The notes under the pieces were generated by a model that searched no databases, was not told where the DNA came from, and was given only the letters and a program-made list of their open reading frames with translations. From NCBI GenBank assembly GCA_964567185.1, contig CAZMKZ010000001.1:13507-77506 (forward strand): DNA of 64,000 nucleotides. The letters run 5' to 3'. Positions 13,284 to 54,027 of this stretch are shown piece by piece. Source of the stretch: an uncultured Thermodesulfobacteriota bacterium. Its GTDB lineage: Bacteria; Desulfobacterota; GWC2-55-46; JADFVP01. Position 1 is the stretch's first letter. The number at the start of each line of letters is the position of its first letter. The position numbers and the translations under genes are program-made.

Positions 13284-13423
13284 GGAATAAAGGTATATAG
13301 GTATCAGGGCTATGACGAGGGATAGTGATAAAAAATAAAACCCTTTTATGTTTTTATTAGAGTAGTTTTTCAATTCGCCTCTATTGTGGAAAGCCTTTGC
13401 TCTTAAAAAAGGAGAGTAAGCCC

Positions 13424-37941: not shown

Positions 37942-37970
37942 TTGACAGGGCCGTGAGGATATATTATTGT
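37942..37970 (+). promoter_or_regulatory. candidate promoter TTGACA-17 nt-TATTGT driving the riboswitch transcript
   Basis: -35 hexamer at 37942-37947 and -10 at 37965-37970, about 25 nt upstream of the riboswitch P1 stem. Confidence 0.45.
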
Positions 37971-37995
37971 CATAGCACAATTGAATAAATGGATA

Positions 37996-38150
37996 TCTTA
38001 TCCAGAGTGGTGGAGGGACTGGCCCGATGAAACCACAGCAACCGGTGCATCACTGCATGTCAGGTGCTAAATCCAGCAGGGTTTGCAAAAACCCTGAAAG
38101 ATAAGAAGAACTAAGAGACCCTCTTCTTATCCCAAGAAGAGTTTTTTTTT
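37996..38150 (+). ncRNA. SAM-I (S-box) riboswitch with intrinsic terminator expression platform
   Basis: TCTTATCCAGAGTGGTGGAGGGACTGGCCCGATGAAACCACAGCAACC...CTGAAAGATAAGAAG. The GGTGGAGGGACTGGCCCGATGAAACC core matches the SAM-I kink-turn/P2-P3 consensus, and P1 is TCTTATC/GATAAGA. A terminator CTCTTCTT-ATCCC-AAGAAGAG plus T9 lies at 38121-38150, and its 5' arm can alternatively pair with the P1 3' strand. Confidence 0.85.
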
Positions 38151-38218
38151 GCTCGTTTTTCGAGATGGCTTTAAGGCGAGTTTCTGTTTTTAACGTATCA
38201 GGCACAGGAGAAACCTAG

Positions 38219-39472
38219 ATGAAGTACATGAAAGGATTAAAGTGCAGGGAGTGCGGGAAGCGCTATCCCCTGGAACCGATCCATGTCTGCGAGTTCTGTT
38301 TCGGGCCCCTTGAGGTGGACTATGATTACGAGAAGATAGGCAAGTCCATTACCAGAGACATCATTACCACCAGAGCCCCTAATATGTGGAGATACAGGGA
38401 GTTGCTTCCCATAGACGCCGAGCCCACGGTGGGCAACAACTCCGGATTTACGCCCCTTGTAAGGGCCTATAACCTGGGCGAGGCCCTGGGCGTTAAAGAA
38501 CTGTACATAAAGAACGACGCCGTTAATTTCCCGACCCTCTCTTTCAAGGACAGGGTGGTCTCCGTGGCCATCTCAAGGGCCAGAGAGATGGGCTTTGACG
38601 TCATCGCCTGCGCCTCAACGGGCAACCTGGCCAACTCCGTTGCCGCCAACTCCGCGGCCTGCGGCCTTGATAGCTATGTCTTCATACCCTATGACCTTGA
38701 GCAGACCAAGATAACGGGAACCCTTATCTACGGCACTAACCTCGTGGGCATAAAGGGGACCTATGACGAGGTGAACAGGCTCTGCAGCGAGATAGGCGGC
38801 AAATACGGATGGGCCTTTGTAAACATCAACATCAGACCCTTTTATGCCGAGGGCTCCAAGACATTCGGCTACGAGATAGCCGAGCAGTTGGGCTGGAAGC
38901 TCCCGCAGCACGTTATTGTGCCCATGGCCGGGGGCTCTCTCATCACAAAGATATGGAAGGCCTTCAAGGAGTTCAAGGCCCTTGGTTTTGTCGATTCTCC
39001 GCCGGCGAAGATATACGGCGCGCAGGCAACGGGATGCGCCCCCATAGTAACGGCTGTTAAGGAAAAGAGCGAGCTCATCCGTCCGGTCATGCCCGATACT
39101 ATCGCCAAATCCCTTGCCATCGGCAACCCGGCCGACGGCTTTTACTCCGCAAGGGCCATCAGGGAGAGCAATGGCTGGGCCGAGGACGTTTCAGATGAAG
39201 AGATAATCGAGGCCATGAAGCTCCTTGCCGAGACAGAGGGCATTTTTGCCGAGACAGCCGGCGGCGTTACCGTGGGCGTGACTAAAAAACTCATCGAGCA
39301 GGGCAGGATACCCCGTGACGAGTCCATAGTCATCTCCATTACGGGCAACGGCCTTAAGACTCAGGAGTGCCTGGCGGGAAAAATCGCCGAGCCCCCTGTA
39401 ATAGAGGCTAAACTTGCCGAGTTCGACGCCCTGCTTGAGGGCGGCTCCGTGCGGAAGACGGCGGTAAAATAA
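38219..39472 (+). CDS. threonine synthase-like PLP enzyme (fold type II) with an N-terminal zinc ribbon; candidate O-phosphohomoserine-dependent homocysteine synthase (MetM-like, MA1715-like)
   Basis: CRECGKRYPLEPIHVCEFCFGPLEV zinc ribbon. PLP lysine motif FPTLSFKDRVVSV. ThrC-like length of 417 aa. First gene after a SAM riboswitch. Confidence 0.8.
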   Translation: MKYMKGLKCRECGKRYPLEPIHVCEFCFGPLEVDYDYEKIGKSITRDIITTRAPNMWRYRELLPIDAEPTVGNNSGFTPLVRAYNLGEALGVKELYIKNDAVNFPTLSFKDRVVSVAISRAREMGFDVIACASTGNLANSVAANSAACGLDSYVFIPYDLEQTKITGTLIYGTNLVGIKGTYDEVNRLCSEIGGKYGWAFVNINIRPFYAEGSKTFGYEIAEQLGWKLPQHVIVPMAGGSLITKIWKAFKEFKALGFVDSPPAKIYGAQATGCAPIVTAVKEKSELIRPVMPDTIAKSLAIGNPADGFYSARAIRESNGWAEDVSDEEIIEAMKLLAETEGIFAETAGGVTVGVTKKLIEQGRIPRDESIVISITGNGLKTQECLAGKIAEPPVIEAKLAEFDALLEGGSVRKTAVK

Positions 39473-39677
39473 GGGACGGGGCGTGATCGGGGGAGGCCCG
39501 TAGAGTATTGGCGCGGGGCAGGATTAACCGGCAGGGCCTGTGCAATATAACAAGGGCTGCCCGGTAGAGAGGCGGGTTCGGCTTGTAATAGTGACCCTCT
39601 TTCTGTTATCATTAGGGTTTAAGAAATATAAAAATTTTCCCTCTAAGAGGGGCGGTTTTCTTAAGGAGGTTTTTTTT

Positions 39678-40673
39678 ATGACGGACCATTTCATAGAGGA
39701 TAAGAGCCATAAGGTAGACCTTGACCTTGAGAACCTCAGCGGTAAGGTTAACTTCGGCGACCTCAAATCCGGGGGGTTCATAAAGCAGCGCCAGAAGGAC
39801 CTCTTTACCGTAAGGCTCCGCTGTCCCGGCGGCAGGATGACTACGGACAAGCTCGTGGAGATATCGAGGCTCGCAAAAAAATACAGCAAAGAGGGTGTGG
39901 TGCACTTCAGCTACCGCCAATCCCTTGAGATACTATATGTGGATTATAAGGACTTTCACGCCCTTGTGGGCGAGCTTGAGAAGATAGGTCAGAAAGTGGC
40001 CTCATGCGGGCCCCGTGTAAGGGTGCCCACTGCCTGCGGCGGATGCGAGTATAACCCCAACGGGCTTATAGACGCGCAGAAGATGGCCCGCATGGTGGAC
40101 GGTAAGTTCTTCGGAACAAATACGCCGCATAAGTTCAAGACCTCTTTTTCGGGCTGTCCCATAGATTGCTCAAGGACCGTTGAGATGGACCTCGGTTTTC
40201 AGGGCGTAGTGGACCCCGAGTGGGAGCAGGACCTCTGCACGGGATGCACCATCTGCTCCGAGGCCTGTAAAGAGGGGGCCATTGAGGCCCACCCCGATAC
40301 AGGAGAACCAATCTTCGACGTTAGTAAATGCCTTTACTGCGCCGACTGCATACGGGCCTGTCCCACCGAGGCGTGGAAACCCGGCAAGCACGGCTTTCTT
40401 GTGCGCATTGGCGGCAAACATGGCCGTCATCCCCTTGAGGGCGTTGAAATCTGCCGTTTCCTACCGGAGGAAAAGGTAAGCGACGCCATAGAGATGACCG
40501 TCAGGTGGTATAAAGAAAACGGCAAGAGTTTCGAGAGGATAGGGCACACCCTGCAGAGGGTGGGCATGGACGGTTATCTTGACCACATGGCCCCGCTCTT
40601 CGGTGATTATGCCGTTAGACCAAAGCATCCGCCCACGGACCGTCCGCTGATCAATAAGCCCGAAGGGGCCTGA
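39678..40673 (+). CDS. small dissimilatory-type-like sulfite reductase (Dsr-like, alSiR-type) with an inserted 2x[4Fe-4S] ferredoxin domain (start ATG 39678 with RBS AAGGAGG)
   Basis: NIR_SIR-type Cys cluster SCGPRVRVPTACGGC ... GCPIDCSRT. Ferredoxin motifs CTGCTICSEAC and CLYCADCIRACP. Confidence 0.7.
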   Translation: MTDHFIEDKSHKVDLDLENLSGKVNFGDLKSGGFIKQRQKDLFTVRLRCPGGRMTTDKLVEISRLAKKYSKEGVVHFSYRQSLEILYVDYKDFHALVGELEKIGQKVASCGPRVRVPTACGGCEYNPNGLIDAQKMARMVDGKFFGTNTPHKFKTSFSGCPIDCSRTVEMDLGFQGVVDPEWEQDLCTGCTICSEACKEGAIEAHPDTGEPIFDVSKCLYCADCIRACPTEAWKPGKHGFLVRIGGKHGRHPLEGVEICRFLPEEKVSDAIEMTVRWYKENGKSFERIGHTLQRVGMDGYLDHMAPLFGDYAVRPKHPPTDRPLINKPEGA

Positions 40674-40788
40674 TTAGCCGCGCTTCATTGGGTCGGGTAT
40701 GGATAATGGGGGGTAATCGGCGCAGTGGGTTTTCAGCTTTCGCCGGGAACCCGAAACATAACAGATCAGGACAAACGGTAAGGTTGAT

Positions 40789-41028
40789 ATGAGTGAGATA
40801 AAGGCAAAGGACAGCATCGATTTAAGGGGCGTCATGTGTCCCACAAACTTTGTAAAGACCAAGCTCAAGCTCGAGGCCATGAACCCCGGCGAGATACTCG
40901 AAGTGGTGCTTGACAGCGGCGAGCCTATCGCCAACGTGCCGAAAAGCGTCAAGGAAGAGGGACACAAGATAGTCAAGGTAAGCAAAGACGACGGCTCATT
41001 CAGGATTTTGATAGAGGTCTCTGAATAG
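40789..41028 (+). CDS. TusA/SirA-family sulfurtransferase-like protein
   Basis: 79 aa. ...IDLRGVMCPTNFVKTKLKLEAM... is a Cys-Pro TusA-like motif in a two-layer alpha/beta fold. Confidence 0.65.
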   Translation: MSEIKAKDSIDLRGVMCPTNFVKTKLKLEAMNPGEILEVVLDSGEPIANVPKSVKEEGHKIVKVSKDDGSFRILIEVSE

Positions 41029-41063
41029 CCCCTAATAAAGTTTTCAAGTACAAGGAGGAGAGT

Positions 41064-41348
41064 ATGTCAGTAAAGGTGAGGATACCCACACCCCTGAGGA
41101 AGATTACAAAGGACAACGACGAGGTCACTGCCGACGGGGCCACGGTCTCCGAGGTAATAGACGACCTGGAGAAAAACTATCCGGGAATAAAGGAGAGGAT
41201 ATGCGAGGCCGACGGGAACCTCCGCCGCTTTGTAAACCTCTATCTCAATGACGAGGACATTCGCTTCAAGGATAACCTCGCTACTGCACTGAAAGACAAC
41301 GATGAACTCTCCATCATTCCGGCCATCGCCGGAGGAGGTGGCCTTTGA
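41064..41348 (+). CDS. ThiS/MoaD-family sulfur-carrier protein (CysO/HcyS/MetO-like) whose C-terminus ...AIAGGGG-L* needs proteolytic exposure of Gly-Gly
   Basis: 94 aa beta-grasp pattern with a glycine-rich C-terminus followed by a single Leu before the stop at 41346-41348. Confidence 0.7.
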   Translation: MSVKVRIPTPLRKITKDNDEVTADGATVSEVIDDLEKNYPGIKERICEADGNLRRFVNLYLNDEDIRFKDNLATALKDNDELSIIPAIAGGGGL

Positions 41349-41581
41349 AAAAAAAGGTCTATCTAACCTATCCTCCGGAGAGGGTGAGAGAGCCTCTTCT
41401 CTGTGAGTGCGTGCGCAGGTTCAATGTCGTAACCAACATAAGGCAGGCCTCTGTTACGGACAAGATAGGCATCGTGGCCCTTGAGCTCGAAGGCGAGCCC
41501 ACGGAGATAGAAAAGGCCATGGACTTTTTTACTGAAAACGGCGTGAAGGTCGAGCCTATTGAGATGAATATTATCGAGTAG
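41345..41581 (+). CDS. stand-alone NIL-domain protein (the MetN C-terminal-type domain). TTG start overlaps the carrier-gene stop by 4 nt (TTGA); RBS GGAGGAGGTG
   Basis: KVYLTYPPERVREPLLCECVRRFNVVTNIRQASVTDKIGIVALELEGEPTEIEKAMDFFTENGVKVEPIE aligns by eye to the MetN NIL domain (LTFTGE...PLISEL.RRFGVDVNIL.GNIE...G.L.VELEGD...ALAYL.E.GV.VEVL). Confidence 0.7.
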   Translation: MKKKVYLTYPPERVREPLLCECVRRFNVVTNIRQASVTDKIGIVALELEGEPTEIEKAMDFFTENGVKVEPIEMNIIE

Positions 41582-41679
41582 CGCCCTCTCACCTTTCCCC
41601 GTCCTTGTCCAAAGGACGGGGAGCCTTGCAAATTCAACTCCCATTGGATTCTTTTCCTTGAAATCACTGCATATTATTC

Positions 41680-41706
41680 TTGACAAACCCGCTAAGGTAT
41701 TATAAT
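41680..41706 (+). promoter_or_regulatory. possible internal promoter (TTGACA-15 nt-TATAAT) upstream of the CysM-like gene, preceded by a 10-bp hairpin CCCCGTCCTT-GTCCA-AAGGACGGGG at 41594-41619
   Basis: Hexamers and hairpin seen directly. The spacer is short at 15 nt. Confidence 0.3.
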
Positions 41707-41810
41707 TTAAAAACTTGATTGTTTTAGTAAGGTAATAAAAAATGCCTTGTAAAAAGCGAGGTTTTAAGGCGCCTCTCCATAATGCTTAACATAATTCCAA
41801 GAGGCCTTGA

Positions 41811-42767
41811 ATGAGCAGCCATACCTTGAAGAGTTTTGACGCAGGGAACGAGTTTGCCATCCCGAAGGCGAGGTCCTCGGCCCTTGACCTTGTGGGCAAT
41901 ACGCCCCTTGTGAGGATAAACAGCATTACAGCGGGTCTTCCAGCCGGCGTAGAGGTATACGCCAAGCTCGAGTCCGCCAACCCCGGGGGCTCTGTAAAGG
42001 ACAGGCCGGCGCTCCGTATGATAGAAGACGCCGAGAAGAGCGGAAGGCTTACCAGGGATAAGATAATACTGGACTCCACATCGGGAAACACGGGCATTGC
42101 CTATGCGTGGATAGGCGCCGTAAAGGGCCATCGCGTAGAGCTGGTGGTTCCGGAAAACGTCAGCGCCGAGAGAAAAAAGATACTCGACGCCTTTGGGGCC
42201 AAGGTCATATTTTCAAGCCCCTTCGAGGGCTCCGACGGTGCGATACGTCTTGCCTGGAAGCTCTACGTGGATAACCCCGAAAAGTACTGCAAGCTCGATC
42301 AGTACAATAACCCCTCCAACCCCCTTGCCCATTACCATGGCACGGGAGTTGAGATAATCGAGCAGACAGGGGGCAGGATCACGCACTTTGTCACCACCAT
42401 AGGCACGGGCGGCACCATAATGGGGACCATGCGCAGGCTCAAGGAGTTTAACAGCAATATCGAAGTAACCGCCGTTGAGCCCGACAACCCCATGCATGGG
42501 CTTGAGGGCCTGAAACACATGGCCTCGTCCATAGTGCCGGGCATCTATCACGAGGACTCGCTGGACAGGAAGATACCGGCCTCCACCGAAGAATCTTACG
42601 AGATGGCCAAGAGGCTAGCCCGTGAAGAGGGCCTTCTTGTGGGGCAGTCATCGGGGGCGGCCATGCTCGGAGCGCTCAAGGTGGCCATGGAGCTTAAAGA
42701 GGGTCTTGTTGTGACAATATTCCCCGACGGCGGAGATAAGTACCTCTCCACAAGCCTCTGGGATTAA
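41811..42767 (+). CDS. cysteine synthase-like PLP enzyme (CysM/CysK family, fold type II)
   Basis: GNTPLVRINSI...VYAKLESANPGGSVKDRPALRMIEDAEKSGRL...DSTSGNTGIAYAWIGAVKGH is the classic CysK/CysM N-terminal half, including the PLP lysine. Confidence 0.85.
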   Translation: MSSHTLKSFDAGNEFAIPKARSSALDLVGNTPLVRINSITAGLPAGVEVYAKLESANPGGSVKDRPALRMIEDAEKSGRLTRDKIILDSTSGNTGIAYAWIGAVKGHRVELVVPENVSAERKKILDAFGAKVIFSSPFEGSDGAIRLAWKLYVDNPEKYCKLDQYNNPSNPLAHYHGTGVEIIEQTGGRITHFVTTIGTGGTIMGTMRRLKEFNSNIEVTAVEPDNPMHGLEGLKHMASSIVPGIYHEDSLDRKIPASTEESYEMAKRLAREEGLLVGQSSGAAMLGALKVAMELKEGLVVTIFPDGGDKYLSTSLWD

Positions 42768-43010
42768 GGGCTACGGGGAGCCCGGGCAGATTATTATTTT
42801 AAATGGCTGACAACAGCCGGTATTGATTTTTTTGGCCTGTCTTTTTTTGAAAAAAGAAGGCCACGCGGTTTTTTTTGATGGTTTCGGCTTCACGGGTTAT
42901 GCTTTGCTTTGTCCATCGTGCAAGTGTTTCCATGCGGCTACAGGCCGCTTATAAATGTGATTAAAGGGGCGTATTGCCCATAACGTGTAAATAAAGATAA
43001 GGGGCAAGTA

Positions 43011-43463
43011 ATGGGTCTACTCTCAAAGTTCAAGAAAAAGAATAAGCTGAAGGTGCCTAAGGACGTTTACGATATCATCATTGAACATGCCAGAGAGGAG
43101 TATCCCCATGAGTGTTGCGGAGTTCTCATAGGTAACGCCATGATGGGCAGAAAGATATTCTACGCCGACAAATGCACGAACCTGAACCGCGAGAGCGCAC
43201 ATAACAGGTATCTCATGGACCCCAAGGAGATAAATCTTGCCGATAAGGGTGCGCGCTCGCAGAGCCTTGAGCTTATGGGCTTTTATCACTCTCATCCGGA
43301 CCATCCGGACAGGCCCTCGGAGTACGACAGGGAGATGGCCCAGCCCGGATACTCATATATAATAGTCTCCGTAAAGGGCGGTACCGAGTTCTCCTTGAAG
43401 TCATGGACCTTTAACGAGGACGATGAACCCTTCAAGGAAGAGCCCGTGGAGATAGGCAAATAA
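43011..43463 (+). CDS. JAMM/MPN+ family metalloprotease (Mec+/HcyD/QbsD-like)
   Basis: E...ECCG, HSHPDHPDRPSEYD (JAMM motif HxHx7Sx2D). 150 aa. Confidence 0.85.
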   Translation: MGLLSKFKKKNKLKVPKDVYDIIIEHAREEYPHECCGVLIGNAMMGRKIFYADKCTNLNRESAHNRYLMDPKEINLADKGARSQSLELMGFYHSHPDHPDRPSEYDREMAQPGYSYIIVSVKGGTEFSLKSWTFNEDDEPFKEEPVEIGK

Positions 43464-43584
43464 AAACCCGGAGGGGTATGTTTGCAGTATACTTTCGGCG
43501 TTAGCGTCCCTGTAATGGGGTGAGTTTTCTTTTTTTGCCGCGATACTACATTTTGTTTTTGCATAGAGGGGGTTAGAGGTCAAG

Positions 43585-44394
43585 ATGGATTTTACCGATG
43601 AACAGATAGAGCGTTACTCAAGGCATATCATACTTCCGGAGGTAGGCGGAAAGGGGCAGGCAAAGCTCCTTGAGTCCAGGGTCTTTGTCCTCGGCGCGGG
43701 GGGGCTCGGTTCTCCGGCCCTGCTTTACCTTGCCGCGGCGGGCGTGGGCACCATAGGGGTTGCAGACGGCGACGTTGTGGATGTAAGCAACCTTCAGCGC
43801 CAGATAATACACGACAACAATACCGTTGGTATGCCAAAGGTGGATAGCGCGCGAAAGTCCATTGAGGCCCTTAATCCCGATGTTGAGGTAAAGACCTTTA
43901 ACGGCAGACTTGATACGGAGAACATCAGAGAGGTCCTTCGGGATTACGATGTGGTCCTTGACGGCTCTGATAATTTTCCAACGCGCTACCTCATGAACGA
44001 CGCCTCTTTTTTCGAGGGCAAGACCCTTGTCTCGGGGTCCATGTTCAGGTTTGACGGGCAGGTCTCTGTCTTCAAGCCGCAGGAGGGCTTTCCCTGTTAC
44101 AGATGCCTCTACCCGGAGCCCCCGCCAAAGGGCATGGTTCCGTCCTGTCAGGAGGCCGGTGTGCTTGGGGCCCTTGCGGGAGTTATAGGGGTACTGCAGG
44201 CCGTGGAGGCCATAAAAGAGATACTCTCCATCGGCAAATCCCTTGCCGGCGAGCTCTTGATATTCGACGCCCTTGCCATGAGTTTCCGCAAGGTCAAGGT
44301 GCGCACAGACCCTGATTGCGCGCTCTGCGGCGGGAATGCTACCATAAAGGAGCTCTCGCTCTATGAGCAGGCCCCATGCGAGCTGCGTACCTGA
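43585..44394 (+). CDS. ThiF/MoeB/HcyF-type E1-like adenylyltransferase (no rhodanese domain)
   Basis: RYSRHIILPEVGGKGQAKLLESRVFVLGAGGLGSPALLYLAAAGVG nucleotide-binding motif. C-terminal Zn motif CYRC...CALCGG. Confidence 0.85.
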   Translation: MDFTDEQIERYSRHIILPEVGGKGQAKLLESRVFVLGAGGLGSPALLYLAAAGVGTIGVADGDVVDVSNLQRQIIHDNNTVGMPKVDSARKSIEALNPDVEVKTFNGRLDTENIREVLRDYDVVLDGSDNFPTRYLMNDASFFEGKTLVSGSMFRFDGQVSVFKPQEGFPCYRCLYPEPPPKGMVPSCQEAGVLGALAGVIGVLQAVEAIKEILSIGKSLAGELLIFDALAMSFRKVKVRTDPDCALCGGNATIKELSLYEQAPCELRT

Positions 44395-44461
44395 TTCGGC
44401 TTTTCGGACTTATGCCGCAAACAGGGGACGGAGAAAGCGGTCTTTTACCTGAGGCGGTTGA

Positions 44462-45697
44462 GTGGTATTGAAAAGCCTGGATTACTTCAAGAACCCCGGA
44501 GCCCTTAAGATAGACCTTATGCTGAGGGGGGCGGCCATAGAAGACCCCCTTGTGAAGGCGCATGCCTGCGGGGCCTCTGGCATAGATATACTCCTGCCTA
44601 AAAAGACCCTCGTAAACATCCCCTGCGAAGACTGGTTTACCGTGCGCTCCCCTTATCTCATTAAAAAGTCTGAAAAGGGGTATGTCCTTACAAACGGCAA
44701 GGCCGAGGTCAGGGTAAGCATACTTCCGCCGCCGAAGTTTTACGGACTGAAGACAAGTTCAGGCGTAAGGCTTGGAGAAATAGCCAGCACTCACGGGAGT
44801 TACACCGTCATAACGCCCGACCAGAGGTGCGCTTTTTTTAAATCAAGCGCCCAGTGCCGTTACTGCGCGGGAAACTTCAGGTCCGACGCCGCCGCGTCCG
44901 GCGCGCGCGTCTATACAGTAGACGAGGTATTAGAGACAGTAAAAGCGGTATTCAGGGAGAGGGCCTCCGGGATAATATACCTCTCAATAGGTTTTGCCGA
45001 GGGCGATGACGGGGGTATAAAATTTCTTGAGCCCTATGTAAGGGCCATTAAGGGGCATTTTAACTGCCTTGTCGCAGTAGAGGCCCTGCCCCCCGCGCGA
45101 AACGAGTGGATCGACAGGGCGTACGCCAGCGGCGTTGATTCACTGCTCTATAACCTTGATATCTTTGATAAGGAGCTTTTTTCCATAATCTGCCCGGGCA
45201 GGGCCGGCCTCATAGGCAGGAAGAGGACCCTTGAAGCCCTGAAATACGCCGCGGGTATCTTCCCTAACGGCACGGTGGCCTCGCACCTCATTGTGGGGCT
45301 TGAACCGCCGGGTTCCACTATCATGGGCATAGATTATCTTACGGATATCGGCGTAGTGCCCATACTGCCCATATTCCGGCCTTCAAGGGAGAGGCCCCTT
45401 GATGTTACGGACCTTCATGCCGAGGTGATTATACCGGTATATCAGCACCTGTACCGGTCCTTGAAGAAAAAGGGCATTAACTTCAACTGGGTCCGCGACA
45501 TAAGCATGGTGACAACCCCCGTGGAGGGCAGGTTCCTCCTTGGGGAAAAAGAGGGCTCAGCCTCTCTGCTTGATAATTTTTACGGCTCAAAGCTCGGCCT
45601 TAAGACGGCATGGGGGCTCTCGGCCCTTCGAAGGCGGCTGCGGGTAAAAAAGCCCGCCAATGAAGAAAACCCCCCAGGCGGGTCTGAAAAGACATAA
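44462..45697 (+). CDS. uncharacterised protein with the Cys triad CAFFKSSAQCRYC (CX8CX2C). Possibly a non-canonical radical-SAM-like TIM-barrel enzyme, or alternatively the COG1900/DUF39 homocysteine-synthesis protein
   Basis: GTG start. 411 aa. Glycine-rich stretch IYLSIGFAEGDDGG about 35 aa after the Cys triad, and later ...VPILPIFRPSRERPL, reminiscent of radical SAM beta-strand motifs. No canonical CX3CX2C. Confidence 0.35.
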   Translation: MVLKSLDYFKNPGALKIDLMLRGAAIEDPLVKAHACGASGIDILLPKKTLVNIPCEDWFTVRSPYLIKKSEKGYVLTNGKAEVRVSILPPPKFYGLKTSSGVRLGEIASTHGSYTVITPDQRCAFFKSSAQCRYCAGNFRSDAAASGARVYTVDEVLETVKAVFRERASGIIYLSIGFAEGDDGGIKFLEPYVRAIKGHFNCLVAVEALPPARNEWIDRAYASGVDSLLYNLDIFDKELFSIICPGRAGLIGRKRTLEALKYAAGIFPNGTVASHLIVGLEPPGSTIMGIDYLTDIGVVPILPIFRPSRERPLDVTDLHAEVIIPVYQHLYRSLKKKGINFNWVRDISMVTTPVEGRFLLGEKEGSASLLDNFYGSKLGLKTAWGLSALRRRLRVKKPANEENPPGGSEKT

Positions 45698-45710
45698 AGG
45701 GAGTATTACC

Positions 45711-47135
45711 GTGAGAGTGGAGATAGACAGGAGGCCCATATCAATAATCATCGCCAATAAGGCGCTGAGGCCCCTTTTTTTCCTTCTCCTTACGGTGGGA
45801 TTTTTCTCATTCCTATACCTCCCCGTGCCCGAGGGGCTGGGGCAGGGCGGCATGAGGGCCATAGCCGTCTTTCTTCTATGCCTTGTGCTCTGGGTCTCAA
45901 ATGCCGTTCCCGTGGCCATTACGGGGCTCTTCGCCATAGTCCTCGTGCCGCTTCTGGGCATACTGCCAAGGGGCGATACGTATTCCCTATTCGGCAATGA
46001 GGCCGTGTTTTTCATACTCGGCGCCTTTATCCTCTCCGGGGCGGTCATGCAGTCCGGCCTCTCGAACAGGGTGGCCCTGCGGCTGATGGAAAAATACGGC
46101 GGCTCTCCGAAGAGGCTTATCATAAGCATATTTCTTCTCGCCGCGGCACTCTCATTCGTAATGAGCGAGCACGCCGTTGCGGCCATGCTCTTTCCCATAG
46201 TGCTTGAGATATCAAAGAGCCTGAAGCTCCGGCCCGGCGTTTCCAACTACGGAAAGCTCCTCTTCTTTGCCCTTGCCTGGGGTTCGGTCATAGGCGGGGT
46301 GGGGACCTTTCTCGGCGGAGCGCGTGTGCCCCTTGCCATGGGCATTCTGAAGGAGACCACGGGCTCTACCATAGGCTTTCTGGATTATACCGTGGCCGTC
46401 GCGCCCCTTGTCGTGGTGCTGCTGGTGGTGGGATACATCGTGCTGACAAGGTTCTTTCCCATTGACATCGAGGGCGTAGAGAGCGCGCACGAGGTCATTG
46501 TAAGGCGCGCCCGCGCCCTTGGCAAGGTGCGCCCGGCAGAGTACGCCGTAGGGGCCATACTCCTTATTACCATCTTTTTCTGGGTGACCATTGGCAAGAC
46601 CGTGGGCCTTGCCGCCATCGCCATGGTCTCGGTGATGGCCCTCTTTGTATTGAAGCTCGTAAAGTGGCGTGAAATTGAGGAGTATGTGAACTGGGGAATA
46701 ATCCTCATGTACGGCGGGGCTATTATCCTCGGCACGGCCCTTGACAGGAGCGGCGCCGCCAAATGGATGGTAGACGCCATTATGACTCAATGGGCCGAGA
46801 CGCCGGTGACGGTGCTGGCGCTCTTTTCACTCCTGGCCATACTGCTCACCGAGTCCATGAGCAACGCCGCCGTCATCGCCGTGCTCCTGCCCGTGAGCAT
46901 CGGCATGGCCGGAAGCACCAATATGAGCCCGGAAGTCCTTACCTATGCCGTGGCCATTCCGGCGGGTCTGGCCTTTATGCTGCCCATGAGCACGCCGGCC
47001 AACGCCATCGCCGTATCAAGCGACTACATATCCGTGCGCGATATGGCAAAGGGAGGGGTGATAATGTTCATCACCTCATGGGTCACCTTTAATCTCATGG
47101 CCCATTTTTACTGGCCCCTCATAGGGCTAAGGTAG
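45711..47135 (+). CDS. SLC13/DASS-family anion permease (Na+/sulfate symporter-like). Start at GTG 45711 with RBS AAGGGAG; the track start 45660 overlaps the upstream gene
   Basis: Polytopic. The PVPEGLGQGGMRAIAVFLLCLVLWVSNAVPVAITGLF hairpin-loop motif is typical of DASS transporters. Confidence 0.65.
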   Translation: MRVEIDRRPISIIIANKALRPLFFLLLTVGFFSFLYLPVPEGLGQGGMRAIAVFLLCLVLWVSNAVPVAITGLFAIVLVPLLGILPRGDTYSLFGNEAVFFILGAFILSGAVMQSGLSNRVALRLMEKYGGSPKRLIISIFLLAAALSFVMSEHAVAAMLFPIVLEISKSLKLRPGVSNYGKLLFFALAWGSVIGGVGTFLGGARVPLAMGILKETTGSTIGFLDYTVAVAPLVVVLLVVGYIVLTRFFPIDIEGVESAHEVIVRRARALGKVRPAEYAVGAILLITIFFWVTIGKTVGLAAIAMVSVMALFVLKLVKWREIEEYVNWGIILMYGGAIILGTALDRSGAAKWMVDAIMTQWAETPVTVLALFSLLAILLTESMSNAAVIAVLLPVSIGMAGSTNMSPEVLTYAVAIPAGLAFMLPMSTPANAIAVSSDYISVRDMAKGGVIMFITSWVTFNLMAHFYWPLIGLR

Positions 47136-47224
47136 GGTTGGGGCAAAACCTGGCGGGTTTATGGGAAAAAATACCGATAAACCCGCCATTATTGTTTACC
47201 TTCCAGAGGATTTAGGTTAAAATA

Positions 47225-47689
47225 ATGGGCAATAAAATACTACTCGTTCTATCGACTCACTCGTACTCGGACCAGGCCGTTGAATATGCTGTCACGAGGG
47301 CCGCGCAGGAGGGCCGTGTGCTTGTGGCCTTCTTTCTGCTTGAGTCGGAGCTTGCCAGAGAGGCCTCGGAGAGGTTCTCGGATATCGGCTTTACAGGCGA
47401 CAAGCCTTCGGCCACGCTCACGGAGTCTCTTATGCGTGAGTACAGGCAGAGGGGCTACGAGGCCCTTGGCAGGGCGCAGATAAGGGCCATGGAGGAGGGC
47501 GTGAGCTTTGAGCCTCTTCTGGATGAAGGGCCTTATGTCTCCACCATACTCGATGCCATAGAGGTCAATGATATAGGACTTGTGGTTATACAGAAGCGCA
47601 GGGAGAGGTCTCTTTTCAAGTACTTTAAAAAGGGTCTTTCCGCAGAGGTGAAAGAGATGGCCTCCTGTGAGGTCGTTATAGTGGAGTAA
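47225..47689 (+). CDS. universal stress protein (UspA family)
   Basis: 154 aa Usp alpha/beta fold. NKILLVLSTHSYSDQAVEYAV...CEVVIVE. Confidence 0.75.
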   Translation: MGNKILLVLSTHSYSDQAVEYAVTRAAQEGRVLVAFFLLESELAREASERFSDIGFTGDKPSATLTESLMREYRQRGYEALGRAQIRAMEEGVSFEPLLDEGPYVSTILDAIEVNDIGLVVIQKRRERSLFKYFKKGLSAEVKEMASCEVVIVE

Positions 47690-47724
47690 TGTAAATTCAT
47701 CACGGTTGAAAGGGAGGATTCAAA

Positions 47725-48432
47725 ATGGCAGTAAAGAAGTGGTCTGAAGAAGAACTTAAAGAGGTATCCGCGGAGCTTGAAGACAAGGGGCCGCAGGCGG
47801 CCATTCAGTGGGCCGTGGACAATTTTGAGAGGCAGGACCTGTCCCTTGCCTGTAGCTTCGGCGCCGAGGATGTAGCCCTGGTGGATATGCTCGTGAAGAT
47901 AAAACCTGACGCCAGGATATTTTATCTTGATACAAACAAGCTCTTTAAGGAAACCATTGATGTTATGGAGCGCCTTAAGGAGAAGTACCACATAAACCCT
48001 GAAAAATACTGCACAAAGATGAGCCTTGAGGAGCAGGCCGAAAAATTTGGACCTGAGCTCTGGAAAAAAGACCCCAAGCAGTGTTGCGATATCAGGAAGA
48101 TAAAACCTCTTAGAGAGGCCCTGTCTGGGCTCAGCGCATGGATAACTGGCATAAGAAGGGACCAGGCCCCTGCAAGGGCCAATGCCCCTGTCGTTGGCTG
48201 GGATTCCATGTTCAACCTGGTGAAGATAAACCCCCTTGTCAAATGGACGAGCGACGATGTATGGGATTATATCCGCGCCAATGACGTGCCCTACAATGTG
48301 CTCCACGACAGGAATTATCCCTCCATCGGCTGTGAGCCATGCACCAATGAGGTAAAACCCGGCGAAGACCCCAGGGCCGGAAGATGGGCTGGTTTCAAGA
48401 AGACCGAGTGCGGCCTTCATGACAAATCATAG
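47725..48432 (+). CDS. cysH: assimilatory adenylyl-/phosphoadenylyl-sulfate reductase (CysH family, Fe-S type)
   Basis: PAPS_reduct fold (SFGAEDVALVDMLVKI). Fe-S Cys pairs KQCCDIRK and IGCEPCT. Catalytic C-terminal ECGLH. Confidence 0.85.
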   Translation: MAVKKWSEEELKEVSAELEDKGPQAAIQWAVDNFERQDLSLACSFGAEDVALVDMLVKIKPDARIFYLDTNKLFKETIDVMERLKEKYHINPEKYCTKMSLEEQAEKFGPELWKKDPKQCCDIRKIKPLREALSGLSAWITGIRRDQAPARANAPVVGWDSMFNLVKINPLVKWTSDDVWDYIRANDVPYNVLHDRNYPSIGCEPCTNEVKPGEDPRAGRWAGFKKTECGLHDKS

Positions 48433-48520
48433 ACATAACCAGTATGAGGTTGCTGCTTCAATATATTGATTTATCAGCCTTTATGTCTTTTAACCCACAG
48501 CATAAGGAGGTTCTCTAAAA

Positions 48521-49684
48521 GTGGAGTCATTGATACCGCCCCATGGCGGCGTGCTTGTTAACAGGGTCGTAGAGGGTAAGGCCCGTCTTGATATGGAAAA
48601 AGCCTCTCTTGATATGAATACCCTCACCCTTAATGCGAGGGAGATATCAGACCTTGAGATGATAGCCACGGGCGGGTTCAGCCCCCTCGAGGGGTTCATG
48701 TGTCATGACGATTATCACTCTGTCATGGATACCATGACGCTGATAAACGGCCTGCCCTGGACCATACCCGTAACCCTTTCTGTAACCACGGAGGAGGCGG
48801 CCGGACTTAAAGAGGGCGTGGATGTTGCCCTTAATAACGAAAAAGGGGAGCTTCTCGCTATCCTTCATCTTGAGGAGATTTTCAAGCATGACAAGGAAAA
48901 AGAGGCCCTTCGAGTATACGGCACCGCCGAAGACGCGCACCCGGGGGTGAAAAACGTCTATGCAATGGGCGAGATGCTTCTTGGCGGCAAGGTCTCCATG
49001 CTCAAACGCACCGAGTACGGCGAGTTCAATGAATACCGCAGGGACCCGCTTGAGACAAGACAGCTCTTCAAGAAGAACGGCTGGAGGCGTGTTGTGGGCT
49101 TTCAGACAAGAAACCCCATACACAGGGCCCATGAGTACATACAGAAGTGCGCCCTTGAGACAGTTGACGGTCTTCTCATACACCCCCTTGTGGGCGAGAC
49201 AAAGGCCGACGACATACCTGCCGATGTGCGGATGCGTTGCTACACGACCCTTATGGAGAAGTATTACCCCGCCGACAGGGTAGTGCTCTCCGTATACCCG
49301 GCGGCCATGCGCTACGCAGGCCCCCGTGAAGCCGTCTTTCATGCCCTGATTCGCAAAAATTACGGCTGTACGCATTTTATCGTAGGCAGAGACCACGCAG
49401 GGGTGGGCGGGTATTACGGCACCTTTGACGCCCATCTCATATTCGACCAGTTCGAGCCCGAGGCCATAGGCATAGCGCCCATGTTCTTTGACTATACCTT
49501 TCATTGCAGGAGCTGCGGCGGCATGGCCTCGTACAAGACCTGCCCCCACGATTCATCGGAGCATATTACCCTTTCGGGAACAAAGGTAAGGGAGATGCTG
49601 AGGGCCGGAACGTGCCCTCCGCCTGAATTCTCAAGGCCGGAGGTGGCAAAGGTCCTCATTGAAGCCATGAAGCCGGCGGATTAA
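48521..49684 (+). CDS. sat: sulfate adenylyltransferase (ATP sulfurylase)
   Basis: GTG start with [26 protein letters not shown] and GRDHAGVG motifs. Confidence 0.9.
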
Positions 49685-49710
49685 GGACGGCTCTCAACCA
49701 GCGTCATTAA

Positions 49711-49740
49711 AAGGCCCCTCATGGAGGGGTCTTTTTTTTT
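49711..49740 (+). terminator. rho-independent terminator after sat (GGCCCCTC-ATG-GAGGGGTC plus T10)
   Basis: Perfect 8-bp GC-rich stem followed by ten T residues. Confidence 0.7.
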
Positions 49741-50002
49741 GGGCAATAATTGCAGTCCGCCTTAATCGTTCTTTTTTTTACCTTTTAATCTTGTTCTCAT
49801 GTTATATGATGAATATTAATAGTATCTCTGAAGTATTATGGCCGCTTTTTTGTCATTATGTCGTAATGCCCTTCGCGGGGGGCGGGGTAGAGCCGGCTGG
49901 TTTACAGCAGGGGGCTTGAGGGTTTGGCGCTCCATGGCCGGTCTTTTGTCATGAGAGCCGATTTACGTAACCTGTACTCAATAATAAGTGTGTCCATGAC
50001 TT

Positions 50003-50815: not shown

Positions 50816-51802
50816 ATGGTCAATATATCGCCGCACAGGTTCAAGGGTTCATGCGTCCCTGTTTTTTTGGCCCTTCTCTCTATTATCTTTCTCGCCGGGT
50901 GCGGGCCTACCATAAAGGGTTCCGTAAAGGAGGACGTAAGCAGGACAGGAGAGTCGGGGAGGCTGGAAGCTGAAGGCCTTGATTACAGGGGGCCTTCATA
51001 CAACGTGGCCATTATCGCCTTCAGGGACAAGACCCCGGGCAGGGCCCTTGGCGTTGCAAGGGCCGCTACGGATATTCTGAGGACTATTGTAAAGCACGCG
51101 GGTCTTGAGCCCATTGTCCTCACTGAAGATGACCTGCGCGAGCAGGAGAGCCTCAGCGCCTTTCAGGAGACGGGCGTTCTCAAAAAGGGCAAGAAGAACG
51201 TGCTTGCAGGTTATGACTCCGTGGACTTCAGGATATCCGGGGCCGTGACTGCCTACTCGGCTGTTGAGGAGAGCACAAACGTCTTGCTGGCGCAGTCCAA
51301 GACCGTCATCTCAAGGGTGCAGGTGGATTATGCCCTCGTAGACGTAGAGACGGGCAAGAGCCTTGTGGCGGATTCGGGCATGGGCGAGTACAGAAAGACC
51401 ACGGGAGGGCTCCTTGGTCTGGGCTCAAAGTCTACCTTTGACATGAGCCTGCGAGACGGGGCGCTTCGCGACGCCCTTACAAAGGCCATGACAAGGATGG
51501 TGGCAAAACTGAACACTCTGCCCTTCAGGGGGCGCGTCCTATCCGTGGAGGGCAATACCCTTTATATCAGGGCCGGCACAAAGAGCAGGCTAGCCACGGG
51601 CACCGTCCTCTCTGTGTACCGGCGCGGTAAAGAGCTTGTAGACCCGGATACTGGCAGGGTAATCGGCAGGGCAGAGTCAAAGATAGGCGAGGTCGTATTG
51701 AGCTCGCATCAGGATGAGAGCATCTCGCGCGCTATCATCAAAAGCGGAAGCGGCTTCAGGGCCGGAGACGTTATAAGGACCTCATCGGGGGCCGCCGGGT
51801 GA
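50816..51802 (+). CDS. CsgG-family outer-membrane lipoprotein with a C-terminal SH3-like extension
   Basis: Lipobox FLAGC. YNVAIIAFRDKTPGRALGVARAATDILRTIVKHAGLEPIVLTEDDLREQ matches the CsgG pattern (krvaV.pFenktg...lg..ltdml.taL...g.f.vveR..l..l..Eq). Confidence 0.7.
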   Translation: MVNISPHRFKGSCVPVFLALLSIIFLAGCGPTIKGSVKEDVSRTGESGRLEAEGLDYRGPSYNVAIIAFRDKTPGRALGVARAATDILRTIVKHAGLEPIVLTEDDLREQESLSAFQETGVLKKGKKNVLAGYDSVDFRISGAVTAYSAVEESTNVLLAQSKTVISRVQVDYALVDVETGKSLVADSGMGEYRKTTGGLLGLGSKSTFDMSLRDGALRDALTKAMTRMVAKLNTLPFRGRVLSVEGNTLYIRAGTKSRLATGTVLSVYRRGKELVDPDTGRVIGRAESKIGEVVLSSHQDESISRAIIKSGSGFRAGDVIRTSSGAAG

Positions 51803-53037
51803 CAGAGGGGTTAAAAAAAGGTCCGGTATCAAGGGGGGTAAGAGGCGGCGCCGGCGCATATGTCTTTTTTGCCGTCCTTTTCGCCATAACCCTTGCCGGT
51901 TGCGGCGGTCCGTCCTCGAAGTGCCTCCTCTCCGATGACAGGATAGGAGAGTCCTATCTTTACGGCATGAACTATCTTGGAAAAAAACAGGCAATGCTTG
52001 CCGCGGGCGCCTTCAAGAGCATACTCGCCTGCAACGAGAGGTTCTCGCCTGCCTACAGCGGACTTGCCGTATCCTACGCGCAGATAGCCGCCGCCGGTAT
52101 CAACCCCGACGGCAAGACTATAATGGCCTCTTCAGTGGCCCTTAGGAAGGCGGAAAAGTATTCCACCGGCAGGGAGGATACCTTCCGACGCCATATAGCC
52201 GCCATGCGCGCAGCTACTATCTATAAGTCTCCGGGTTGGTTCGTGACGGTAGAGAACGAGTACAGGCTTGCCATGAAGACAAGGGTTGAGGCCGCGAAAC
52301 TTCCCTATTACCAGAGCAGCGACGCCGCCGGGTACTTCATGGGCAATGCTTTTTTCGACGCGGGGCTTATCGAGAGCGCCATGGCCGAGTACGAGGCCCT
52401 TTTCAAGGTAAACCGTCTTGACAGGTGGGGCAGGCTCTCTCAAAAGGCATTCAAGAGGAGCGGCCTCATATTGAGTCATATAGAAAGGTCCGTGGCAGGG
52501 CCCGATGTGGTGGTTCTTGCCTTTCATAAAGATGTTACAAGGGGAGACGTGGCGGCTATCCTCATAGGTGAACTACAGGTTGATGAACTGCTCGGCATTA
52601 ATGAGATACCGATGGGTATGAGAAACAATACCTCCCCGGTGCCCGTCGATATCCTGAAGAGCCCCTTCAAGGCCAAGATACTGAAGGTGATAAGGCTGCA
52701 CATAAAGGGGCTTGAGCCATCCTATTCGCCGGAATCCTCAACATACCTTTTCAGGCCCCGTAAGGTGGTCTCCAGAAAAGACTTCGCCGTCATTATGGAT
52801 GATATACTTAAGAGGTTATCGGCCTTTACACCGGCCTTTAGTGAGGGGGCCCATAAAGAGCGGAGCTTCACCGACGTGCCGCCCGATGAGCCCTGGCACA
52901 AGGCAGTAATGGACGTTACAAGGCGCAGTCTTATGAGTTCTGTCTCGGGCAGGCTCTTCAGGCCCGATGAAGGCCTTGACGGTCCCGACGCCTTCAGCGC
53001 AGTTTTTGGCCTCAAGAGAATGCTTGAGTCGCGCTAA
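51799..53037 (+). CDS. lipoprotein (lipobox LAGCG) with a TPR-like N-terminal region
   Basis: Signal peptide plus lipobox. 4-nt overlap with the CsgG-like gene. Confidence 0.4.
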   Translation: MTEGLKKGPVSRGVRGGAGAYVFFAVLFAITLAGCGGPSSKCLLSDDRIGESYLYGMNYLGKKQAMLAAGAFKSILACNERFSPAYSGLAVSYAQIAAAGINPDGKTIMASSVALRKAEKYSTGREDTFRRHIAAMRAATIYKSPGWFVTVENEYRLAMKTRVEAAKLPYYQSSDAAGYFMGNAFFDAGLIESAMAEYEALFKVNRLDRWGRLSQKAFKRSGLILSHIERSVAGPDVVVLAFHKDVTRGDVAAILIGELQVDELLGINEIPMGMRNNTSPVPVDILKSPFKAKILKVIRLHIKGLEPSYSPESSTYLFRPRKVVSRKDFAVIMDDILKRLSAFTPAFSEGAHKERSFTDVPPDEPWHKAVMDVTRRSLMSSVSGRLFRPDEGLDGPDAFSAVFGLKRMLESR

Positions 53038-53271
53038 GCCCCCCTCATGAGCGCTATCCCATAATCGCACGCAACCCCCTTTTTATTCTTTGTCAATAAA
53101 AACAGCACCGCTTAATAAGCTGTTTTAACAGCATTTTTTTGCTATTTCGAGTTTGCTTTCTCAAGCCTGCCCCCGGTGACCGTGGTCACACCCATCTGCA
53201 CCCCTTTTTTGTATAATCAGGTTGTGGATTAAGAGTGTTGTTCTTGTTGACTGAAGAAAAGGAGGTAAGCA

Positions 53272-54027
53272 GTGCGAAGACTTGTTATGGCAGTATCAGT
53301 CTTTATCTCATTTCTTCTCTTAAGCGTTAATGCTTACGCCCTCGTTGATGTTGAGGCGAGATACTGGTTTACCAACCTTGATGCAAACATCGAGGCCAAC
53401 AGCGGCACTGTCATAGGCACGGACCTGGACCTTGTAAACGACCTCGGTGTAGACGACCATGAAAACTTCCTTGAGGGCAGGATTACCCTTGAGCTTGGCC
53501 ATCATAGTTTTCGTTACGCCTACATGCCCCTTTCATGGAGCGGTAACGGAGTGGTTGCGCAGAACATAAGCTTTGCAGGAAAGACTTTTTCGGCCTCTAC
53601 CGCTGTTTCCACGGATGTGCAGATAGATTACCACCGTTTCAGTTACCGCTATGATTTTTTTAATAAACTGAAGAACCGTATTGGTGTTATCGCTGAGGTC
53701 AAGTACTTTGACGGCAGGGTGAACCTCAAGGACGCGGCACTCGGACTCGACGAGTCCACGCGTCTGCAGATACCCATGCCGGCCATCGGCATAGGCGGTC
53801 AGATATCCATACCTTTGCTCGCTAAAATAGGGGCCGAGGTGACGGGTATGAGCCTCGGCACGCTGGCCTATGTGCTTGACGCAGAGGCCAACATCGGTTT
53901 CAAGCCACTGCCCTTTGTAGACATCTCCGCCGGGTACAGGTACTTGAAATTCCATATTGACAAAGATGGAGATGTGGGCAGCATTAGCCTGAGAGGACCC
54001 TTTATCACATTGACGGCTGATTTTTAA
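53272..54027 (+). CDS. outer-membrane beta-barrel protein
   Basis: Signal peptide, alternating hydrophobic beta-strand pattern, and a C-terminal aromatic residue (…TLTADF*). Confidence 0.5.
   Translation: MRRLVMAVSVFISFLLLSVNAYALVDVEARYWFTNLDANIEANSGTVIGTDLDLVNDLGVDDHENFLEGRITLELGHHSFRYAYMPLSWSGNGVVAQNISFAGKTFSASTAVSTDVQIDYHRFSYRYDFFNKLKNRIGVIAEVKYFDGRVNLKDAALGLDESTRLQIPMPAIGIGGQISIPLLAKIGAEVTGMSLGTLAYVLDAEANIGFKPLPFVDISAGYRYLKFHIDKDGDVGSISLRGPFITLTADF

Follow-up and report, generated by a model that had tools for sequence, protein, structure and literature searches.

The window analysed here, a stretch of 64,000 nucleotides from an uncultured Thermodesulfobacteriota bacterium (contig CAZMKZ010000001.1), carries on its forward strand an operon of 13 genes at 38219-49684, preceded by an S-adenosylmethionine (SAM) riboswitch. 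The second gene encodes a protein of 331 amino acids (aa) that, judged by its sequence, is a Group III Dsr-like protein (Dsr-LP), a predicted sulfite reductase of the siroheme-[4Fe-4S] type. An earlier reading of this DNA from its letters alone, here called the sequence-only reading, had placed the gene in an assimilatory cluster with sat and cysH downstream, which proved to be this same one-strand operon. The neighbours it had named, the genes for a ThrC-like enzyme, TusA, a sulfur carrier, a NIL-domain protein, CysH and Sat, were all confirmed by domain searches. We consider it likely that the Dsr-LP serves as sulfite reductase and feeds a SAM-repressed pathway in which protein thiocarboxylate provides the sulfur of cysteine and homocysteine.

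The reading frame of the reductase extends on the forward strand from a GTG at 39540 to the stop codon at 40673, with the ATG at 39678 giving the 331-aa product. An AAGGAGG Shine-Dalgarno sequence lies 8 nt upstream of this ATG and homologues of 315-330 aa share the N-terminal MTDHFIEDK with the reductase, so the start at 39678 is correct, and the limits and length that the gene had been given from the letters (39678-40673, 331 aa) stand. Database searches returned 1434 homologues at E <= 1e-5, the best of them 93% identical; such a number is far above chance and argues that the gene is real and under selection. The public names encountered for the family were "4Fe-4S binding protein" and "dissimilatory sulfite reductase alpha/beta", and one entry, 67% identical to the reductase, is called "Putative sulfite reductase, GSU1351 type". 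Pfam matched NIR_SIR_ferr at residues 35-102 (E 5.9e-16) and NIR_SIR at residues 111-300 (E 5.6e-26), the two models with which a check had been proposed, and two Fer4 motifs inserted at residues 180-235. The embedded 2x[4Fe-4S] ferredoxin domain that had been predicted is thus present and complete, with eight cysteines (Cys187, Cys190, Cys193 and Cys197; Cys218, Cys221, Cys224 and Cys228, the last followed by Pro). Likewise, all predicted motifs were found: SCGPRVRVPTACGGC at residues 109-123, CPIDC at 160-164, CTGCTICSEAC at 187-197 and CLYCADCIRACP at 218-229.

To place the protein among siroheme reductases we compared profile scores, sequences and folds. None of the curated NCBIfam models matched at its cut-off: the best score came from AsrC (TIGR02912; 106 bits, cut-off 324), followed by DsrA (TIGR02064; 70 bits, cut-off 393), DsrB (TIGR02066; 66 bits, cut-off 342) and CysI (NF010029; 31 bits, cut-off 457). 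Among solved structures the best sequence match was the F420-dependent sulfite reductase Fsr through its C-terminal half (7NPA/7NP8; E 2e-37, about 31% identity), in which residues ~330-615 only were matched, and the phmmer scores were 133 bits for Fsr, at most 44 for DsrA/B and at most 56 for NirA-type proteins. The AlphaFold2 (AF2) model of the reductase (predicted local distance difference test score, pLDDT, 79; predicted template modelling score, pTM, 0.79) superposed on Fsr with a query-normalised TM-score of 0.76 and a root-mean-square deviation of 2.6 A; on the same scale DsrA/B reached 0.66-0.70, and SiRHP and NirA about 0.5-0.6. The reductase is hence nearest to the C-terminal part of Fsr, with DsrA/B more distant and CysI/NirA far more so, and the early description as Dsr-like rather than CysI/Sir is borne out by profile scores and TM-scores alike. 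In the AF2 model the N-terminus (residues 1-22; window 39678-39745) has a pLDDT below 50; within it MTDHFIEDK is conserved, D3 and E7 are invariant, and the stretch may be an interaction segment.

Four identities were tried and rejected. DsrA and DsrB scored far below their cut-offs, and the window lacks a paralogue of the reductase for an alpha/beta gene pair; AsrC scored 106 instead of 324 bits, and no AsrA- or AsrB-type subunit turned up among the Pfam and NCBIfam hits of the neighbours; CysI/Sir reached 31 of 457 bits and is a two-repeat protein of ~570 aa as opposed to a single repeat in 331 aa; and Fsr requires an FrhB-like F420H2-oxidase N-terminal half, which Pfam did not find in the reductase. 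The protein fits the features of Group III as defined by Susanti and Mukhopadhyay (2012), who had already recorded bacterial homologues in Geobacter, Desulfovibrio and Syntrophus (PMC3448663), and the traits of subgroup d, namely four cluster cysteines, four Arg/Lys residues, the ferredoxin insert and proximity to the Fsr C-terminal half, are all present. The label "alSiR-type" given by the sequence-only reading has to be dropped, because alSiR is a Group I Dsr-LP with no ferredoxin domain (PMC3448663) and the reductase carries an insert of 84 residues. In a 215-aa Group I-like relative the alignment covers residues 24-179 and 264-308 of the reductase only, and residues 180-263 are missing. 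Despite this difference in class, the catalytic core is alSiR-like.

Residues of the active site were followed in a representative alignment of 100 sequences (98 cluster representatives, the query and Fsr). The sulfite binders of Fsr, Arg355, Arg423, Lys460 and Lys462, align with Arg46, Arg115, Lys152 and Lys154 of the reductase, and Fsr Arg388 aligns with Arg80; the latter Fsr residue is a hallmark of assimilatory enzymes and is replaced by Thr in DsrA (bioRxiv 10.1101/2022.04.07.487323). All five are invariant in the family and kept in 84-92 of the 100 aligned sequences, as are the eight cysteines of the ferredoxin insert in 87-99. Cysteine motifs were classified by alignment, since ferredoxin motifs give false pattern matches. 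The motif of the siroheme-coupled cluster reads C120-X2-C123...C160-X3-C164 in place of the canonical CX5C...CX3C. A Cys at query position 126, the canonical one, occurs in 91 of the 100 sequences and at position 123 in the other 9, and none has both; CX4C spacing in 24 sequences indicates that the motif varies within the family. In the neighbour-joining tree, the 7 full-length CX2C sequences included form one clade. We read the variant as a shift of the second ligand by three residues inside one bacterial clade, which would make it a natural experiment on how strictly the siroheme-coupled cluster dictates its ligands. C110 was considered as a substitute ligand and rejected, as Cys is found there in 43 of the 100 sequences, mostly in those that keep CX5C, and shows no covariation with CX2C.

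The genes and control elements around the reductase gene are given in Table 1. The terminator-like hairpin behind the aptamer is probably the expression platform of the riboswitch. Between the ThrC-like gene and the reductase gene lies an unusually long gap of 205 nt (39473-39677) with a hairpin at 39638-39652 and a promoter-like site at 39583-39612, in which no Rfam family reached its gathering threshold.

Table 1. Features of the operon and of its control elements, with positions in the window.
Feature	Position	Strand	Basis or remark
Sigma-70-like promoter TTGACA-17-TATTGT	37942..37970	+	10/12 matches, consensus match only; directly 5' of riboswitch
SAM (S-box) riboswitch aptamer	37995..38107	+	RF00162, 94 bits (gathering 44.4), full length
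Terminator-like hairpin and T-run	38121..38151 (hairpin 38121-38141)	+	stem CTCTTCTT...AAGAAGAG, then TTTTTTTTT; 14 nt past aptamer
ThrC-like pyridoxal phosphate enzyme with N-terminal zinc ribbon	38219..39472	+	PALP; threonine-synthase models
Group III Dsr-like sulfite reductase (predicted)	39678..40673	+	domains, alignment, model
TusA/SirA-family sulfur-transfer protein	40789..41028	+	conserved Cys in GVMCPTNF
ThiS/MoaD/SAMP-like sulfur carrier	41064..41348	+	C-terminus ...PAIAGG-GGL
Stand-alone 78-aa NIL-domain protein	41345..41581	+	Pfam
CysM-type cysteine synthase	41811..42767	+	cysKM TIGR01136 349 bits (cut-off 344); cysM model 376 (cut-off 394)
JAMM/Prok-JAB metalloprotease, Mec+/HcyD-like	43011..43463	+	domain models
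MoeB/ThiF/UbaA-type E1 adenylyltransferase	43585..44394	+	269 aa, without rhodanese domain
Variant radical SAM protein	44462..45697	+	NF045502 166 bits (cut-off 125); synteny kept in 35 loci
DASS/SLC13-family anion symporter	45660..47135	+	domain models
Universal stress protein family member	47225..47689	+	Pfam
CysH	47725..48432	+	PAPS_reduct; CC...CXXC iron-sulfur motif in sequence
Sat, ATP sulfurylase	48521..49684	+	Pfam
Intrinsic terminator, strongest of the region, ends operon	49709..49745 (hairpin 49709-49735)	+	12-pair stem, then T-run

The ThrC-like enzyme is a probable MetM-type homocysteine synthase, as suggested by the riboswitch, the adjacent carrier and the details of MetM and MetO in Hasebe 2024 as cited in PMC12172450. 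The DASS/SLC13 symporter is a probable sulfate importer. CysH is probably an adenosine phosphosulfate (APS) reductase, as the CC...CXXC motif marks the iron-sulfur APS reductases; no APS kinase occurred among the Pfam and NCBIfam matches of the operon genes, and the route therefore probably runs from sulfate through APS to sulfite. A family profile run against all open reading frames (ORFs) and Pfam run on 37 of the larger ones besides the reductase revealed no second NIR_SIR-type gene in the 64 kb, hence the reductase is within the window the only candidate for the sulfite-to-sulfide step, as had been proposed. The C-terminus of the carrier (window 41330-41348) consists of PAIAGG followed by GGL, and PAIAGG with a variable tail of one to three residues, such as AF, AA, SI or KF, recurs in nearly all related loci. 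This extra tail means that the JAMM protease must trim the carrier before adenylation; in Wolinella, Krishnamoorthy and Begley reportedly found in 2011 that the HcyS-Ala precursor is trimmed likewise by the JAMM protease HcyD. The radical SAM protein (44462-45697) has an unusual CX8CX2C spacing (CAFFKSSAQCRYC) and no obvious role in sulfur assimilation.

Furthermore, we scanned relatives of the reductase with one genome per species (283 relatives) and fetched 80 loci. About 65 of them, from metagenome-assembled genomes (MAGs) of uncultured Thermodesulfobacteriota ("Deltaproteobacteria"), keep the order ThrC-like, reductase, TusA, carrier and NIL and usually continue with the remaining operon genes, and a SAM riboswitch was found 5' of the cluster in all six related Thermodesulfobacteriota-type loci tested. 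In 78 of the 80 loci with enough flank, which come from several phyla, profile searches detected TusA no more than 3 kb away from the reductase; these are not independent observations, as most of the 80 belong to one uncultured Thermodesulfobacteriota clade. For this reason nine distant cluster representatives (27-42% identity) were inspected: TusA follows the reductase immediately 3', often overlapping it, in seven, and a rhodanese gene adjoins the reductase in the other two. TusA adjoins the reductase even in loci that have no carrier or E1 gene. Among 150 cluster representatives searched for fusions, the reductase carries a C-terminal TusA in P0123, P0131 and P0134, an N-terminal Prok-JAB domain in P0137 and P0138, and an N-terminal MoaD part that ends in AGG ahead of a linker in P0139; P0228 is a fusion of a Dsr-LP with a C_GCAxxG_C_C redox domain. 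The carrier-free and E1-free loci together with the fusions demonstrate that TusA follows the reductase itself and not merely the E1-carrier pair. TusA is a dedicated partner of the reductase.

Outside the Thermodesulfobacteriota, the neighbour that stays constant is TusA. The gene order in Nitrospinota MAGs (such as UBA9963; locus L066, 6732-13047) is cysD, cysN/cysC (cysNC), Dsr-LP, TusA, cysH and a PHO4-family permease, and in Omnitrophota and Poribacteria TusA precedes the reductase. In anammox MAGs (such as Candidatus Loosdrechtia; L076, 9220-15554) siroheme synthase, reductase, DsrE-like, CysM, JAMM, TusA, Rieske and GltD-like oxidoreductase genes follow one another; the last encodes an NAD(P)H oxidoreductase that carries Fer4 domains and is a possible electron donor in that lineage. 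Siroheme synthase genes adjoin the reductase in L076, L081 and L086. In L086 (392-5785) the CX2C-type relative P0126, in which Pfam recorded no Fer4, is followed by genes for TusA, JAB, a pair of radical SAM proteins, an AhbA/B-like (NirD/L) protein that is a regulator or a decarboxylase, and siroheme synthase. Beside remote Dsr-LPs (27-33% identity; L095 1740-4870 and L093 4001-5215) rhodanese stands in place of TusA, and a Firmicutes-like locus of a remote Dsr-LP has three consecutive rhodanese genes.

Taken together, these data suggest the following course of sulfur through the operon. Sulfate imported by the DASS transporter would be converted by Sat to APS, APS would be reduced by CysH to sulfite, and sulfite, bound by Arg46, Arg115, Lys152 and Lys154, would be reduced by the Dsr-like enzyme. 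The latter is presumed to be a homodimer like the C-terminal domain of Fsr, because it is encoded by a single gene and two protomers build each siroheme site in Fsr. Electrons from a low-potential donor would enter through the built-in two-cluster ferredoxin domain and move on to the siroheme-coupled cluster held by Cys120, Cys123, Cys160 and Cys164. The sulfur would be loaded as thiocarboxylate on the MoaD/ThiS-type carrier, which JAMM would trim and the rhodanese-less MoeB-type E1 adenylate, with TusA most likely acting as the sulfur shuttle that links the reductase to the activated carrier. From the carrier, CysM would pass the sulfur into cysteine and the ThrC-like (MetM-type) enzyme into homocysteine, and SAM would repress the operon through the riboswitch.

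The sulfate-assimilation operon of Nitrospinota and the siroheme synthase neighbours independently place the reductase in assimilation. Several points weigh against the proposed pathway. The function of the bacterial clade is a prediction from its genes, and the 64 kb covered leave room for a second sulfite reductase elsewhere in the genome. The first half of the siroheme-cluster motif departs, as CX2C, from the canonical CX5C, and the AF2 model gives its loop low confidence (pLDDT below 50 for residues 123-125). Moreover, an electron donor for the reductase could not be identified among the operon genes, and the dominance of one clade among the 80 loci lessens the force of the TusA pairing. 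Finally, if the reductase releases free sulfide, TusA has no obvious chemical role, which makes the TusA step the weakest of the proposal. We rank the roles open to TusA with free sulfide and an accessory TusA first, a hand-off of S0 second and a function on the substrate side third.

The second of these roles would imply a two-component reductase that produces no sulfide, comparable to DsrAB-DsrC: sulfite would be reduced to S0 only and given to the Cys of TusA as a persulfide, the TusA persulfide would attack the adenylated carrier, and two more electrons would free the thiocarboxylate. In general terms, bacterial Group III Dsr-LPs would then be two-component enzymes with TusA (in remote lineages rhodanese) as an obligate partner, through which the sulfur of sulfate bypasses free sulfide on its way to cysteine and homocysteine. 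We hold both the mechanism and its generalisation for possible but rather doubtful. They are favoured by the pairing with TusA, which spans several phyla, holds for 78 of 80 loci and extends to some devoid of a carrier or E1 gene, by the position of TusA or rhodanese in the nine distant representatives, by the three independent Dsr-LP-TusA fusion clusters and by the DsrE-like gene beside the reductase of the anammox locus. In addition, an E1 that has no rhodanese domain needs a persulfide donor, as Iyer et al. predicted for SirA (PMC1779556). However, Arg80, the equivalent of Fsr Arg388, and the first cluster Cys, which is retained, are traits that Jespersen et al. tie to complete six-electron reduction. 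The siroheme would furthermore be buried, and access of TusA to it has no structural support. Also counted against the hand-off is the 2011 work of Krishnamoorthy and Begley, in which free bisulfide was reportedly enough to thiocarboxylate HcyS of Wolinella. If it were true, the transfer of S0 to TusA would be the assimilatory counterpart of DsrAB-DsrC.

Improbable, in our view, is that TusA or rhodanese acts on the substrate side, turning thiosulfate into a protein persulfide and sulfite that the reductase then clears, in a module for utilisation or detoxification of thiosulfate and sulfite. The replacement of TusA by rhodanese genes beside remote Dsr-LPs, a gene of the TauE sulfite-exporter family that adjoins one cassette and the weak resemblance of the window TusA to YedF and to TsuB/YeeD-type proteins would fit such a role, as would the thiosulfonate carried by TusA of Metallosphaera (PMC4175335). 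The operon nevertheless has its own sulfate-to-sulfite route with transporter, Sat and CysH, so sulfite arises there without thiosulfate, and control by a SAM riboswitch indicates biosynthesis rather than detoxification.

We see very little to recommend the idea of the sequence-only reading that the insert could take the place of the ferredoxin half in the methanogen NIL-ferredoxin protein; the insert would then serve together with the separate NIL as a split protein in homocysteine synthesis. The separately encoded NIL domain does exist (41345-41581, 78 aa); its gene is part of this operon, starts with TTG, overlaps the stop of the carrier gene by 4 nt and is coupled to that gene in translation, and some databases name such NIL proteins after the NIL-ferredoxin family. 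The insert, however, is ancestral and is carried at the identical position by Fsr, DsrAB and almost every Group III Dsr-LP, and it is kept in NIL-free loci of Nitrospinota, anammox bacteria and Omnitrophota, while the occurrence of NIL follows that of the ThrC-like and MoaD genes and not that of the reductase. The nearest 120 NIL homologue clusters are likewise all stand-alone, with exactly 78 aa save one of 80 aa. DUF39, the partner of NIL-ferredoxin (PMC5764234), had no match among those ORFs of the window that were scanned against Pfam, which were not all of them. NIL homologues are labelled "FeS-binding protein", "MetN" or "L-aspartate semialdehyde sulfurtransferase ferredoxin", though they have no Fe-S domain.

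Least credible of all is a non-assimilatory enzyme that would reduce nitrite, or else sulfite for respiration or detoxification in the manner of AsrC or Fsr. Siroheme reductases often accept nitrite as well as sulfite, the Fsr of Group II is a nitrite reductase (PMC9295563) and AsrC was the top-scoring NCBIfam model, but all four sulfite-binding residues are kept, two of which are altered in Group II Fsr, the AsrC score stays far below its cut-off (106 vs 324) in an operon whose Pfam and NCBIfam matches hold no AsrA- or AsrB-type subunit, the F420H2-oxidase domain is absent from the reductase, and the operon is one of sulfur-assimilation genes under a SAM riboswitch.

The proposed assimilatory Dsr-LP can be compared with several described systems. 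With Fsr's C-terminal half (7NP8, 7NPA) it shares the fold, the two-cluster ferredoxin insert, the four sulfite binders and the assimilatory-type Arg. Unlike Fsr, it has no N-terminal F420H2-oxidase half, so its electron donor differs from that of Fsr; it has CX2C...CX3C where Fsr has CX5C...CX3C, and it is a bacterial protein of a biosynthetic operon whereas Fsr serves detoxification. The Group IIId Dsr-LP of methanogens resembles it in being a stand-alone protein of ~300 aa that holds all four Arg/Lys residues, the siroheme cluster and both peripheral and additional [4Fe-4S] clusters, and that of M. maripaludis reduces sulfite in vivo and allows sulfite to be used as sulfur source (bioRxiv 10.1101/2024.03.05.583561). 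In contrast to the methanogen proteins, the reductase belongs to a separate bacterial CX2C clade and to a sulfur-carrier operon that contains TusA. DsrAB-DsrC is similar in its homologous fold with a ferredoxin insert and in its small Cys-bearing sulfur-carrier partner, but the window has a single gene instead of an alpha/beta pair, TusA instead of DsrC, Arg80 instead of the Thr of DsrA, and a biosynthetic context. The catalytic core resembles that of alSiR (Desulfovibrio vulgaris DVU1597), with ~38% identity over residues 24-179 to the 215-aa Group I-like relative, from which the 84-residue ferredoxin insert (residues 180-263) sets the window protein apart.

The operon corresponds to class 4e of Iyer, Burroughs and Aravind 2006 (PMC1779556), which combines ThiS/MoaD, JAB, an E1 lacking rhodanese, SirA (today's TusA), sulfate transport and activation, sulfite reductase and sulfhydrylase in neighbourhoods of Geobacter metallireducens, Wolinella and others, and for which it was proposed that the sulfur of sulfate ends on the carrier. 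The Geobacter genes GSU1350-1352 bear the annotations sulfite reductase, sulfur carrier and thiocarboxylate synthase (PMC3495685). All components of class 4e lie on one strand of the window (38219-49684). As in class 4e and the Wolinella system, the operon encodes a Gly-Gly carrier with a removable tail, JAMM, a rhodanese-less E1, SirA/TusA, sulfate activation and a sulfite reductase. The pathway of Wolinella succinogenes, reportedly described by Krishnamoorthy and Begley in 2011, consists of HcyS, HcyD, HcyF, MetY and Sir; unlike there, the homocysteine-forming enzyme of the window is ThrC-like (MetM-type) and not MetY. In comparison with both, the operon adds CysM, NIL, the variant radical SAM protein, the universal stress protein and the SAM riboswitch.

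The type of reductase and the class of operon are thus already known, the latter from comparative genomics in 2006. Our analysis adds the class assignment, the clade-specific CX2C variant, the control by a SAM riboswitch and the tie of TusA to the reductase itself. As the family is annotated either as "4Fe-4S binding protein" or as "dissimilatory", surveys can judge assimilatory sulfate reduction to be incomplete. A 2024 survey of Nitrospinota found Sir missing from most non-Nitrospinia MAGs and inferred a dependence on sulfide (PMC10839748). The Nitrospinota Dsr-LP may be the sulfite reductase that this survey found missing, and recognition of the Dsr-LP family could fill such annotation gaps. 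Moreover, that TusA accompanies the reductase almost everywhere and is at times fused to it raises the question what job a persulfide carrier has beside a six-electron sulfite reductase; an answer would shed light on the loading of protein thiocarboxylates from inorganic sulfur.

Elsewhere in the window, ORFs of 251-443 aa with no Pfam match at E <= 1e-5 lie at 50816-54027, 13397-14647 and 24452-25783, and include three consecutive ones 3' of the operon. The window also contains, at 6548-7981, a gene for SelA (L-seryl-tRNA(Sec) selenium transferase), and therefore the organism probably uses selenocysteine.

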